Of a DNA stretch of 49,845 nucleotides, positions 994 through 31,021 are shown piece by piece. Under the pieces are notes generated by a model. It was not told where the DNA came from. It ran no database searches and was given only the letters and a program-made list of their open reading frames with translations. The DNA lies in NCBI GenBank assembly GCA_041649115.1, contig JBAZNT010000011.1:1-49845 (forward strand), read 5' to 3'. Made by a program: the position numbers and the translations under genes. Numbering within the stretch: the stretch's first letter is position 1; each line of letters begins with the position of its first letter. The stretch comes from Candidatus Omnitrophota bacterium. Lineage in GTDB: Bacteria; Omnitrophota; Gorgyraeia; Gygaellales; Profunditerraquicolaceae.

Positions 994-1130
994 AGACTTC
1001 AGGAAAAGGCAGGAAGTGTAAGTTTCCGCATTGCGGCCATACCTTAAGCATCTATAATCATGAGGCCTATTGCCATATTCATATGGGGGTTACGGATAAA
1101 ACGAGAAAGTCTAAGAAAGGAAAGCCCTGA
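981..1130 (+). CDS. Hidden 49-codon basic Zn-finger-like microprotein (C-x4-C-x12-C-x2-H) with an ATC codon at the start position
   Basis: Not in the ORF track. Reads (I/M)KKVKTSGKGRKCKFPHCGHTLSIYNHEAYCHIHMGVTDKTRKSKKGKP*. GAGGG lies 6 nt before ATC at 981, and the TGA at 1128-1130 overlaps the helicase ATG (TGATG). Confidence 0.7.
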   Translation: MKKVKTSGKGRKCKFPHCGHTLSIYNHEAYCHIHMGVTDKTRKSKKGKP

Positions 1131-2383
1131 TGGTGCCTCGAACAGGCGGAACGGACAATATCAATAGTGCGTCGAAGCAGCCGGAGTTCGGCTTTTACGG
1201 GCTGGGCATTGCCCCCAGGATCCTTGATACCCTGGCGCGCATAAAGTTTAGAACCCCCACGCCCATTCAGTTCAAGGCTATCCCCTTAGCAATCCAAGGC
1301 AAGGATATTATCGGGATCGCCCAGACCGGGACCGGCAAGACCCACGCCTTTGCCATCCCGATGGTGCAGCGGCTGGCACAGAAGAAGGGGGTGGGGTTGG
1401 TCCTGGCGCCCACCCGGGAGTTAGCGCTGCAGATTAATGAGTCTTTCCAGGAAATAGTCCGTCCCTTTGGAATGAAGACCGCCTGTCTCATCGGCGGCGC
1501 CCCGATGCAGTATCAGGTGCAGGCATTGCGTAAGAATCCCCAGGTGGTGATTGCTACCCCGGGCAGGCTGCTTGACCATATGGGGCAGTGGAATTTCTTG
1601 CCGGACGATGTATCAGTGCTGGTGCTGGATGAGGCAGACCGCATGCTGGACATGGGATTCGCTCCGCAGATAGATAAGATTTTGCGTTTCCTTCCCAGAG
1701 AGAGGCAGACCATGCTATTTTCGGCTACCATCCCCAAAGAGATTATGGAGATGGCAGCCAGGCAGATGAAACTTCCGGTATCGGTAGAAATTGCTCCCTC
1801 CGGCACTACCGCGGAGCGCGTCACGCAGGAACTGTTCATTGTAAAAAAAGAAGCCAAGCGTCAGCTTCTCAGCAAGTTGCTGGCGCAGTACCGGGGCGCA
1901 GTGCTTTTGTTTTCCCGCACGAAATATAACGCCAGAAAGATCACGCGCTGCATCCGCGATATGGGTTACAGCGCTGCGGAGATACACTCCGACCGCTCCC
2001 TGAGCCAGCGCCGGGAGGCGCTGGAGGGTTTTAAATCAGGGAAATATAAGGTGCTGGTGGCTACCGATATTGCCTCGCGGGGAATCGATGTCGCCGGTAT
2101 CGAACTGGTGGTTAATTATGACCTCCCTGAAGACGCCCAGAACTATGTGCACCGTATCGGGCGTACGGCAAGGGCGGGATCCTGCGGGCATGCAATTTCC
2201 TTCGCCACGCCTGAGCAGCGCGGAGATGTCAGGGATATCGAAAGGATTATCAGGTCTACGCTACCCTTAGCAAAACACCCCGAGATTGCCTCGGAAAGAT
2301 TTATTGATTCCGGGCGTGAATCCCCTCGAGTGAATCCAAGGCACCATCAAGGGCAAGAGCGGCATAGGTTTCGCCGCTATTGA
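1130..2383 (+). CDS. DEAD-box RNA helicase (RhlE-like)
   Basis: Q motif (TPTPIQ), AQTGTGKT, PTRELA, TPGR, DEAD, SAT and HRIGRTAR are all present, with a short basic C-tail. Confidence 0.95.
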   Translation: MVPRTGGTDNINSASKQPEFGFYGLGIAPRILDTLARIKFRTPTPIQFKAIPLAIQGKDIIGIAQTGTGKTHAFAIPMVQRLAQKKGVGLVLAPTRELALQINESFQEIVRPFGMKTACLIGGAPMQYQVQALRKNPQVVIATPGRLLDHMGQWNFLPDDVSVLVLDEADRMLDMGFAPQIDKILRFLPRERQTMLFSATIPKEIMEMAARQMKLPVSVEIAPSGTTAERVTQELFIVKKEAKRQLLSKLLAQYRGAVLLFSRTKYNARKITRCIRDMGYSAAEIHSDRSLSQRREALEGFKSGKYKVLVATDIASRGIDVAGIELVVNYDLPEDAQNYVHRIGRTARAGSCGHAISFATPEQRGDVRDIERIIRSTLPLAKHPEIASERFIDSGRESPRVNPRHHQGQERHRFRRY

Positions 2384-2536: not shown

Positions 2537-3235
2537 TTATTTGCTGCGGCAGCAGCGAAACGCATGCGAATCGCTCGCGGCACCGGCGTAGCCAACGGAA
2601 CCGCAGGAAGAGTAGCCCCGGACGAGCGCGAGGGTCGCCGGAGCGTAGGCGCTGCCGGAGTCCCAAGAATCGACCCATTCATAGTTTCCGGTCATACCGC
2701 TTGCCTTGTCGTAAACACAGGCATTATACCACTCCGAGGAAGTGCACAGGCGCGCATTGTATGGATCTGCGCAGTAATCGGAAGCCGCATACCAGGTCTT
2801 AGCAGAGTTTTCATTTGTCTGGATACAGTAGCCGTATCCGGTATCCGTGAAGCCATCAGGGCAAGAGCCTTCTGCTATCGTCTGCCATCCGTCAGTCGCG
2901 CCTTTATATACATACAACTGGCTGTCCGAATCATAATAAACCACCTCTCCTTCCACATTATCAGAATCCGGAAGAGAAGTCTGCGGCTTATAGATTACGC
3001 CCCTGGCGACGTACAATTGGCCGTTTGCCGAGGGTTGATCCGGGCTGTCCAATGTTCCGCTTCCGTCCGTATCCCCCACCGCCATCTTGTTGGTCTGCAG
3101 TTCATTATAAACGCCGTGAGGGGCCGGATAGTAAGTAGTAATGGTAAGGCTTTCTTCGGCCGCAAGAAAAGAACGGGGGGCAATGAGAAAGTTTAGAAAG
3201 AGAGGGAGTAGTAATGATATCTTTGGTTTAAACAA
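2537..3235 (-). CDS. Secreted protein with N-terminal ITTYYPAP module and C-terminal C-type lectin (CLec/FGE-like) domain; candidate DGR target
   Basis: AAGGAGG lies 6 nt before TTG at 3235 (the track start at 3241 abuts the SD). It has a signal peptide, then CPDGF...YCI...TWYAASDYC...ARLCTSSEW..AC...EWV...RG...FRCC. Confidence 0.7.
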   Translation of the reverse strand: MFKPKISLLLPLFLNFLIAPRSFLAAEESLTITTYYPAPHGVYNELQTNKMAVGDTDGSGTLDSPDQPSANGQLYVARGVIYKPQTSLPDSDNVEGEVVYYDSDSQLYVYKGATDGWQTIAEGSCPDGFTDTGYGYCIQTNENSAKTWYAASDYCADPYNARLCTSSEWYNACVYDKASGMTGNYEWVDSWDSGSAYAPATLALVRGYSSCGSVGYAGAASDSHAFRCCRSK

Positions 3236-3431
3236 TAGCAACCTCCTTGTTTTTTGGTTATATTAAGTATATAACAGAATTTCTTAAAAATAAAGAATCT
3301 TTGTTTTTTGTTGTCCCTGCCGCCAGGCCTTTCCTTGAAAGATTCAGATTGTGATAGCCATTTTTTTACCTTATAATAATACAGGATAAGGGTTTTTTAT
3401 CAGATTGCCCGATAAAAGAAAGGAGGACCAA

Positions 3432-3776
3432 ATGGCATATTTTCTGGTGAGATGGGGGATTAGCGCAGTGTCGATTTTTATCGTTGCGCACATCGTAAAA
3501 GGCATAGAGGTTGCCAATATCGCGACCGTGCTGGTCTTTGCGTTGGTGCTGGGGATCATCAATGCCTTCCTGAGGCCCTTGATCATCCTGATTACCCTGC
3601 CTATCAATATCCTCACCCTGGGGGTACTTACCTTTTTTATAAACGGCGCCCTTTTTTACCTGGCATCCAGGATTGTCAAAGGCTTTGTGATTACCGGTTT
3701 CTGGCCGGCATTCTGGGGATGCATACTTTTCAGTATCATCAGTTTCTTATTGAGCCTGATGGTGGTCTCTGCTTAA
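3432..3776 (+). CDS. YvlD-like (phage holin family 4) membrane protein
   Basis: AGGAGG SD before ATG 3432. Four hydrophobic segments with the NAFLRPL..LITLPINILTLG...FING signature. Confidence 0.85.
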   Translation: MAYFLVRWGISAVSIFIVAHIVKGIEVANIATVLVFALVLGIINAFLRPLIILITLPINILTLGVLTFFINGALFYLASRIVKGFVITGFWPAFWGCILFSIISFLLSLMVVSA

Positions 3777-29312: not shown

Positions 29313-30359
29313 ATGTCTCAGGCAAAGATAATTTCTACCATCGGCCCTGCAAGCGCCGGGAGGGTGATATTGGAGGAGATGGCGCTTGCCGGTATGGCTG
29401 TAGCGAGGCTGAATTTTTCGCACGGCGCGCTGGCAGGGCACCGGCTGCGGATAAATGCAATCAGAGGATTAAATAAAAAATACGGCCATAACATAAAGAT
29501 ATTGCAGGACCTTGAGGGCTACAGGATAAGGGTCGGCAGGCTTAAAGGAAGCAGGCCGGTTTTACTAAAGAAAGGCGAGGGCGTATTTTTAACCAACGCC
29601 AGGACAATGGGCAGTAAAGATATGGTTCCTTTTGACTACTGCGGGCCTTTGAAGGATATAAAGCGCGGCAGCTCTGTATATATAGACGACGGCAATATCA
29701 TGCTGCTAGTCAAAAAATCGACCAGGGAATATCTCCAGACCGAGGTAGTCATGCCGGGCCTGCTTAAGGAAAACAAGGGGGTTAATATCCCCGGGGCAGT
29801 CTTAAGCTTTCAGGGGCTTACCGACAAGGACAAGACGGACCTGGACTTCGGCATGGCAGGCGGGGTGGATTTTATAGCGCAGTCCTTTGTAAGGGGAAAA
29901 AACGACATATTGGAGCTCAAGGATTATATCAAGGCCAGCGCCTTCAGGCATAAAATAATAGCGAAGATCGAAAACCGCCAGGGTCTCGATAATATTGATG
30001 AGATTATTGAGGTTGCCGACGGGATTATCGTGGCGCGCGGAGACCTGGGGGTGTCGGTGCCCATATACGAAATCCCCGTACTGCAGAAGATTATTATTAA
30101 TAAGTGTAACCGCCGGGGTAAATTTGTGGTTACCGCGACCCAGATGCTGGAGAGCATGACCGAGCACCCGAGGCCTACGCGCGCGGAGGCAAGCGACGTA
30201 GCCAACGCGGTGCTCGATGGCTCAGATTACCTGATGTTATCTGCCGAGACGGCAGTAGGGAAGTACCCGGTAGAGTCGGTGCGGATGATGCGAGATATCA
30301 TCAGGTTTACGGGAGGTTTTTTAAAGAAAGGCAAAAGGGATTTTACGGGTTATCATTGA
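29313..30359 (+). CDS. pyk: Pyruvate kinase, short form lacking the C-terminal domain
   Basis: KIISTIGPAS, ARLNFSHG, DFIAQSFVR, IIAKIE, ARGDLG, TATQMLESM, PTRAE.SDVANA and MLSAETA.G.YP; 348 aa. Confidence 0.92.
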   Translation: MSQAKIISTIGPASAGRVILEEMALAGMAVARLNFSHGALAGHRLRINAIRGLNKKYGHNIKILQDLEGYRIRVGRLKGSRPVLLKKGEGVFLTNARTMGSKDMVPFDYCGPLKDIKRGSSVYIDDGNIMLLVKKSTREYLQTEVVMPGLLKENKGVNIPGAVLSFQGLTDKDKTDLDFGMAGGVDFIAQSFVRGKNDILELKDYIKASAFRHKIIAKIENRQGLDNIDEIIEVADGIIVARGDLGVSVPIYEIPVLQKIIINKCNRRGKFVVTATQMLESMTEHPRPTRAEASDVANAVLDGSDYLMLSAETAVGKYPVESVRMMRDIIRFTGGFLKKGKRDFTGYH

Positions 30360-30385
30360 CAACCATGCATAAAAAGGAGTAGGGG

Positions 30386-31021
30386 ATGGGATTGATATCA
30401 TTGCTATTCAGCAACCCGCAGCTGTTTATCGTATTGGCGGTGTTGCTTCTTTATTCCGTAATTGCACACGAGGTGGCCCATGGATGGGTGGCGCATCTTT
30501 TTGGGGACGACACCGCCAGGTACTACGGCCGCCTTACTCTTAATCCGCGTTCGCACCTCGACCCTATCGGGACGCTAATGCTTTTTTTGGTGGGGTTCGG
30601 CTGGGCAAGGCCCGTGCCGGTGGATTACTACAGGCTAAGGGGCAGCCGCCTGGCGCTGGTATGCGTTTCTCTGGCAGGGTGCGCCACGAACATCCTGATA
30701 GCCACAGTCGCCCTGTTCTTATTGCAGTTTCGCGCAATAAGTTCCAACTCCGGATTCTATACCGCCCTTTCAATCGTAGTGAGGATAAATATAATCCTGG
30801 GGGCATTTAACCTCATACCCATCCCGCCGCTTGACGGCTCCAGGATCCTGATGGCGTTTCTTCCTGAGGATGCCCAGCAGGGCCTTGCGAGGCTGGAGCC
30901 CTACGGGTTTTTTATCCTGATATTCCTGCTTTTTACGGGGCTGCTTAATCCCGTGATAATCTTTATGCAGAATATAATCTACGGTTTTATAGCGTTTTTG
31001 TTCCACCTGTTTTTTAGGTAA
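30386..31021 (+). CDS. Site-2 protease (M50) family metalloprotease
   Basis: HEVAH, GRLTLNP and [11 protein letters not shown] motifs. Confidence 0.92.

Follow-up and report, generated by a model that had tools for sequence, protein, structure and literature searches.

The gene at 2537-3235 of the window (the whole stretch of DNA analysed here, 49,845 nt) ends in a segment with the composition and codon register of the variable region (VR) of a diversity-generating retroelement (DGR). At a probability of about 0.55, we favour the reading that this tail is a relic DGR variable region and that its current variation comes from recombinational module exchange. A CPR-type DGR (bAvd plus reverse transcriptase, RT) would once have copied the last ~110 nt from a template rich in AAY, whether in an ancestor or in the tip module's donor. 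Such copying would account for the scarcity of adenines, the lack of any A-ending codon and the encoding of the ligand-binding loops in NNY codons. The retroelement would since have gone from the genome, and its absence would make the tail an orphan that evolves by ordinary mutation. The present variation would arise as homologous recombination swaps whole lectin-plus-tail modules between strains, with borders at the conserved CPDGFTDTG on the 5′ side and at FRCCRSK-stop on the 3′ side.

Organization of the gene and its product

The features of the locus are collected in Table 1. The open-reading-frame listing runs the frame of the gene on to TTG 3241. The 232-aa product is identical to P0001 in the public protein collections, and no Pfam or NCBIfam model scored above its cut-off for it. 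The FGE-sulfatase model (PF03781) remained below the gathering cut-off (12 bits vs 23.3, E = 0.17) and covered residues 149-194 only. The product is arranged as a signal peptide, an N-terminal module with a beta-rich linker, and a cysteine-rich C-terminal domain of 110 aa. No cassette is present upstream of the gene or downstream of the tail, where the convergent helicase lies, and the flanks hold nothing mobile or phage-related nearby.

Table 1. Coordinates of the gene, its segments and its neighbours in the window.
Feature	Position	Strand	Basis or remarks
Whole gene	2537..3235	(-)	232 aa + stop; start TTG 3235, GGAGG 6 nt before
Signal peptide, conserved N-terminal module (ESLTITTYYPAPHGVYNELQTNKMAVGDT...) and beta-rich linker	2867..3235	(-)	ordinary codon usage
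C-type-lectin-fold domain, constant scaffold (CPDGFTDTGYGYCIQ...SEWYNAC...EWVD)	2669..2866	(-)	pLDDT, Foldseek
Region with homology to the TR/VR repeat found in DGR-linked relatives (EWVDSW ... AFRCC)	2549..2680	(-)	composition, template alignment; diversified-looking portion 2561-2662
Invariant 3′ end TTTCGCTGCTGCCGCAGCAAATAA (FRCCRSK*)	2537..2560	(-)	allele comparison
DEAD-box helicase, convergent neighbour	1130..2383	(+)	same synteny in L038
Small membrane protein, divergent neighbour	3405..3776	(+)	L038 orthologue matches Phage_holin_4_2

The N-terminal module is Omnitrophota-specific and recurs in 31 of 41 related genomes, often as many paralogues. One paralogue in the source genome (contig C13, ~30000-31000, minus strand) has the same signal peptide and TITTYYPSPYG module, after which come fibre repeats of the GIGT type, an endosialidase chaperone domain (Peptidase_S74, E = 3.5e-19) and, as its tail, a coiled coil. 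This paralogue suggests that the module heads a surface-fibre family. The signal peptide, the eight cysteines of the domain and the fibre-type paralogue on C13 together point to a surface location. The product is thus probably a secreted, surface-attached small fibre or adhesin with a disulphide-rich C-type-lectin-fold tip, and this tip may bind a ligand.

Fold and family of the C-terminal domain

The C-type-lectin fold that the preliminary description had assigned to the C-terminal domain is supported by structure prediction. An AlphaFold2 model built on 20 homologues gave pLDDT values of 80-92 over the domain. Foldseek matched it at probability 1.00 to C-type lectin-like domains (rhodocytin, langerin, LOX-1) and to FGE/EgtB/SenA, with TM values of 0.5-0.63 by target and weak E-values (2e-3 at best). 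The top viral structural match was a phage DUF1566 protein (TM 0.63, rmsd 2.3 A). A profile search against PDB sequences returned EgtB only (E = 0.24).

A phmmer search over 1.84 billion representatives yielded 382 clusters at E<=1e-3, in which the domain is nearly always C-terminal. The domain matches P0004 at E = 5e-41 and P0006 at E = 4e-36, and an alignment of 13 family members contains 23 invariant columns. Protein identity of the scaffold to true DGR targets is 73-78%. In the source genome the domain profile finds a single copy. Several distant homologues likewise end in CCRSK. Among the phmmer matches, P0033 looks spurious, as a 2012-aa S/T-rich sequence with many short cysteine-containing repeats, which we take to be a fungal CBM1-repeat protein.

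Nucleotide composition of the tail

The counts first given for the tail were reproduced exactly. Over the 114 nt of the coding strand from 2662 to 2549 there are 9 adenines (with C=44, G=36 and T=25); 31 of the 38 codons end in C or T, 7 in G and none in A. The GC content is 0.70 in the tail vs 0.49 in the rest of the gene and 0.50 in the genome. Adenines per 38-codon window number 20-33 elsewhere along the gene and go down to 9 solely at its end. Across the 1.32-Mb genome, 114-nt windows with <=9 adenines on one strand make up 2.6e-4 of all windows and fall at 25 loci. By eye, most of the other 24 loci resemble T-rich stretches or the antisense of coding regions; a lectin-like tail is encoded at none of them.

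The null model kept the peptide and drew its codons by simulation from the codon usage of the genome. The simulated tails carried 15.0 +/- 2.4 adenines vs the 9 observed (P(A<=9) = 0.006) and 4.6 NNA codons vs none observed (P(0) = 0.006). By the same simulation, the scaffold of the lectin domain and the N-terminal half of the gene were ordinary. The amino-acid composition (G/A/S/Y/C) accounts for about two thirds of the adenine depletion, bringing the expected number from 30 to 15. Thus, the depletion at the nucleotide level is real but moderate.

Register of the tail with DGR templates

Seven homologues lie directly upstream of cassettes composed of a template repeat (TR), bAvd and RT (L007, L008, L032, L042, L047, L049 and L057); the L032 cassette belongs to a Saccharibacteria MAG. 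The likeness to DGR targets of the CLec fold, noted earlier from the protein end alone, is thereby substantiated, since the domain family includes true targets with TR-bAvd-RT in cis. Six of the cassettes were measured; the repeat pair of L008 was seen and stands outside the six. The TRs of the six are 105-115 nt long with 27-32 adenines, TR and VR differ by 11-16 A-to-N vs 0-2 non-A changes, and the VRs retain 13-20 adenines.

The closest template is that of L057, whose domain is 78% identical to that of the window. It reads EWVDSW-NNNNN-ALVRG-D-VSCTSV-NNNN-AA-NN-S-N-AFRCC, and the window tail reads EWVDSW-DSGSA(YAPATL)-ALVRG-Y-SSCGSV-GYAG-AA-SD-S-H-AFRCC. In codon-for-codon alignment to the L007 and L057 templates, the window has NNY at every template AAC or AAT, and 7 of the 9 remaining adenines of the tail fall in codons opposite these template codons. 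The DGR-like variable region put forward in the preliminary description is therefore upheld: the tail is in register with the templates of true DGR targets. The L057 template was also considered as the template of the window tail itself and was rejected on 20 non-A mismatches, mostly synonymous changes in scaffold codons.

A complete DGR occurs in the same order in L024 (G025:C38), with VR at ~237-330, TR at ~965-1060 and RT at 1082-2275. Its target ends in ...GFSVRCVKD (DUF1566-type), a bAvd-like ORF is present, and VR and TR show 15 A-site mismatches and 1 non-A mismatch. The L024 template does not match the window tail, and the lectin class differs. In L040, a family member that has no recognisable template repeat is followed downstream, on the other strand, by a weak RT-like match (2086-2355, minus strand; 34% over 98 aa, E = 5e-6).

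Homologues without a retroelement

The tails of homologues in species-representative genomes that carry the domain and give no PF00078 match (L030, L033 and L031, the last of these an Omnitrophota record with the title chromosome) were compared with the window tail and with DGR-linked tails (Table 2). Ordinary tails are found in L031 and L033, so the signature is no general property of the domain. The preliminary description had allowed that non-DGR homologues might share the same composition, and these two genomes speak against it. Judged from these sequence comparisons, the A-poor signature appears to mark DGR-written tails and to fade in RT-less genomes. The window tail is more depleted in adenines than the tails of the active relatives (9 vs 13-20), which counts against the relic reading; as the tail has not relaxed to genomic codon usage, fairly recent writing would be implied.

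Table 2. A-ending codons and adenines in tails of the domain family.
Tail	Codons ending in A	Adenines
L031 (RT-less)	8/38	21
L033 (RT-less, two copies)	10/38 and 13/38	35 each
L030 (RT-less)	3/38	18
DGR-linked tails	1-2/38	13-21
Window	0/38	9
Sister allele, L027	4/38	26
L029 (64% orthologue)	1/38	12

The L029 gene (831-1532) is a 64%-identical orthologue in an AT-richer genome, and its tail is equally VR-like (GC 0.63 vs 0.41). The L029 contig stops 162 nt past the stop codon, and a cis cassette would lie beyond view there.

It is unlikely that the tail was never a DGR target and represents ordinary ligand-binding loops of a native Omnitrophota lectin-like domain, rich in G/A/S/Y/C and shaped by chance or codon selection. 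The fall in expected adenines brought about by amino-acid composition alone is in keeping with such an origin, as is a codon-level P of only ~0.006. The same N-terminal module and lectin tail, the latter of ordinary composition, are also found together in the RT-less Omnitrophota L035-L037, and in P0028 and P0032; the tail of L035, which has no RT, is moderately GC-rich (A=18, GC 0.60). Against this origin stand the closeness of the scaffold to that of true DGR targets, the register of the tail with their templates, with NNY at all AAY positions, and the 0 A-ending codons vs the 8-13 of 38 in L031 and L033. A further argument comes from the alleles described below, between which a sharp patch of 46% identity lies between an 80% identical scaffold and a 100% identical 3′ end, the pattern of DGR homing.

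Search for RT, Avd and a template

The source assembly is a MAG of 22 contigs and 1.32 Mb, 89.7% complete. The lack of RT, Avd and template repeat in the window, as first reported, is correct and extends to the whole assembly. The MAG gave no PF00078 match at E<=1. With the L007 proteins as tblastn queries, it gave only matches of E>1 for RT and nothing below E = 0.6 for Avd. A blastn-short search of the MAG with the L007 template found nothing, and a BLAST-type search with 2520-2720 returned only chance matches of 14-17 nt. In an adenine-tolerant sliding scan of the MAG the best 60-nt windows had 10-13 non-A mismatches, which is noise. An A-rich, T-poor segment that surfaced twice (C5:59795-59961) was rejected as a template, with 11-13 non-A mismatches per 60 nt. 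The genome-wide look for an A-specific copy that the preliminary description had proposed thus found none, as far as an 89.7%-complete MAG can be tested. At this completeness the absence of RT is not proven.

The search was extended with an 81-nt adenine-tolerant pattern in which each position is its own base or A. With <=3 mismatches allowed, the sole match across 234 genomes of the order (233 others and the source genome) was the tail itself. The adenine-tolerant method recovers the templates of L007, L032, L042, L047, L049, L057 and L024. The exact 81-nt pattern had no match in JGI metagenome contigs or IMG/VR, and neither a 45-nt version nor an allele-B pattern had one in IMG/VR. The metagenome scan required an exact match over 81 nt, and 4 of 6 control DGRs carry 1-2 non-A mismatches; it could therefore miss a real template, and its negative result is weaker than those within genomes. 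RTs are rare in the order, being found in 4 of 41 genomes, including the real DGR of L024/G025, and two genomes of the same genus have no RT.

These results bear on the proposal, made in the preliminary description, that the tail is a remote (trans) DGR target. Applied to the present day, the proposal would place a cassette in the unassembled ~10% of the genome, or else on a plasmid or phage left out of the bin, with occasional rewriting of the tail. We consider such current service doubtful. The source assembly lacks RT, Avd and TR, the two same-genus genomes lack RT, no TR is found in them or anywhere in the order, and no template appears in JGI metagenome contigs or IMG/VR. The DGRs of the family are of the CPR type, and CPR DGRs mostly have a single adjacent target (PMC5758913). 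What can be said for a trans cassette is that the signature of the tail is fresh and extreme, that a true DGR exists in the same order (L024/G025), and that the MAG is incomplete. Of 372 DGRs, 10 have documented remote targets at >100 kb from the RT, and remote targets are known for non-phage DGRs (PMC5758913). The incompleteness of the MAG (89.7%, 22 contigs) likewise counts against the relic reading. DGR cassettes are often carried on mobile DNA or on DNA that bins poorly.

Comparison of strains reveals two module alleles

Syntenic orthologues were available from three other samples (L038, L027/L028 and L039). The lectin-plus-tail module exists as two alleles, A (window and L038) and B (L027 and L039), each with no more than two sequences in the public protein collection (Table 3). 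The flanks of the window and L038 are 85-91% identical. Scaffold plus tail of L027 and L039 agree at 300/300 positions. Between the alleles, dS is 0.94 in the scaffold vs 0.04-0.14 in the N-terminal part.

Table 3. Nucleotide identity within and between the module alleles.
Segment	Allele A (window vs L038)	Allele B (L027 vs L039)	Between alleles
Upstream	85%	90.5%	81-96%
N-terminal part	92%	93%	90-96%
Scaffold	197/198	198/198	80% (dS 0.94)
Tail	103/107 + frame-shifting 1-nt deletion in L038	102/102	46%
Last 24 nt	22/24	24/24	window vs allele B 24/24; L038 22/24

Within the allele pairs, no ongoing diversification at template-adenine sites was seen despite flank divergence of 7-15%, and a short-fragment search for variant tails found none. 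Tail differences between the window and L038 amount to 6 in 131 positions and one indel, vs 1 of 198 in the scaffold. This mild local excess could reflect population heterogeneity. The differences are scattered single changes, including third codon positions, and the other adenine sites are not re-randomised. The control pair L057 and L058 is 95.5% identical upstream, and in each of its tails 14 template adenines are changed. P0004, P0024 and P0025, which cluster together, likewise differ mainly in the tail. From these sequences it appears that an active DGR of the family rewrites its tail when flanks have diverged to a comparable or larger extent, and that the tail of the window lineage has not been rewritten.

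The same comparison weighs further against a trans cassette in current use. Tails that are identical or nearly so at 7-15% flank divergence, unlike those of L057 and L058, are not what such a cassette would leave, and the scattered window/L038 changes do not follow the adenine sites. Nor do alleles A and B come from one template, as their third codon positions disagree in 11 of 25 aligned codons. One shared template was rejected, since these differences would need stop-generating NNA codons in it. A long template spanning the whole lectin domain, as an explanation of the blocks of 99.5-100% identity, was also rejected; many scaffold adenines are unchanged between strains. In favour of a trans cassette stand the mild excess of differences between the window and L038 tails and the 3′ end, which is perfectly conserved between the window and allele B and holds a small hairpin where the IMH would lie.

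The hairpin (2540-2560) falls in the F-R-C-C-R-S-K codons, spans 21 nt (TTT-C-GCTGC / loop TGCC / GCAGC-AAA) and is identical in both alleles. It appears in the predicted DNA folds of the window and L027; the whole fold is no better than that of shuffled sequences, with a z-score that is not significant. The segment 2537-2560 is the place where an IMH-like element would lie, and the hairpin is a putative signal.

The preferred reading, a relic tail varied by module exchange, draws on the incongruence of the locus. The flanks of the window are closest to L027/L039 and its lectin module to L038, which shows that recombination has exchanged modules. In both allele pairs the 5′ module junction lies at the start of the lectin domain. 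Taken together, the sequences indicate that an old dimorphic tip module has changed hands by recombination.

The L038 deletion shortens G4 to G3 in CGGGGC at ~1980-2000 of a contig from SRR9855028 (window ~2615-2620) and shifts the frame of the tail. The L038 product, P0022, has 240 aa and an out-of-frame C-terminus. Either a pseudogene or an assembly error is at hand. The persistence of the deletion speaks against active homing, which would be expected to overwrite it.

It is quite unlikely that an off-chromosome DGR, in a minority donor strain or on a plasmid or phage that escaped binning, still writes tails whose modules then spread among RT-less Omnitrophota strains by homologous recombination at the conserved borders; if true, a few hypermutating cells would provide the whole population with receptor alleles.

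Relation to known DGR systems

The CPR-type targets (L057/P0004, L007/P0005, L008/P0006, L032, L042, L047 and L049) are the nearest known counterparts of the window protein. They have the same ~105-aa C-terminal lectin-fold domain, at 73-78% identity in the closest members, and share with it the frame EWVDSW...ALVRG...SC.SV...AFRCC. In both, the variable positions fall at the template AAC/AAT codons and the VR sits at the extreme C-terminus. In the CPR-type loci TR, bAvd and RT follow within 300-450 nt downstream, whereas in the window a convergent helicase follows and the genome is without all three. The N-termini of the CPR-type targets are pilin- or fibre-like, and that of the window protein is the Omnitrophota TITTYYP module. 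Their tails vary among close strains; the window tail is static.

TvpA of Treponema denticola is likewise a cellular (non-phage) protein, secreted or surface-located, with a lectin-fold C-terminal VR, and targets of the T. denticola DGR can be far from the RT (PMC4891356; PMC5758913). In Treponema, one genome holds both the RT and a template that fits all targets (PMC4891356; PMC5758913), unlike the genome of the window. TvpA is of the FGE-sulfatase-type CLec1 class (PMC4891356; PMC5758913), and the FGE-sulfatase match of the window protein is below threshold (E = 0.17).

The Legionella LdtA or DUF1566 type (CLec2) is that of the best viral structural match of the window protein and of the target in L024, the sole DGR found in the same order. 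Its sequence class is other than that of the window protein. In Bordetella phage BPP-1, the tail-fibre protein Mtd has its cassette in cis, and homing is proven. Mtd and the window protein both present a C-type-lectin fold at a fibre tip with C-terminal loops coded by NNY, derived from template AAC in Mtd, and both have a constant GC-rich 3′ end with a hairpin close by. No sequence similarity to the window protein was detected for Mtd.

No paper in the library searched joins DGRs and Omnitrophota. RT-anchored surveys cannot, by their own statement, detect targets away from the RT (PMC8144416). Since DGR surveys start from the RT, variable regions that have lost their retroelement or become separated from it go unseen. 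The locus would be a clean example of such an orphan variable region; it also shows the fusion of a CPR-type DGR target domain with an Omnitrophota surface module that is lineage-specific. Together with its relatives it would offer an internal scale for the fading of the signature, from active DGR-linked tails through a fresh-looking orphan and a partly relaxed sister allele to the fully relaxed tails of RT-less genomes. The tip would now be varied through module exchange and not through mutagenic retrohoming. If a retroelement were present elsewhere in the community, the case would be the more interesting one of remote or population-level DGR use. Omnitrophota are thought to depend on other cells, and the lectin tip is a candidate determinant of contact or adhesion.

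The TITTYYP module to which the tip is joined is expanded in related Omnitrophota (G006, G013, G034 and others), with up to 15 matches per genome. The copies are often in tandem (for example in G013:C26 and G013:C2) and carry differing C-terminal parts.
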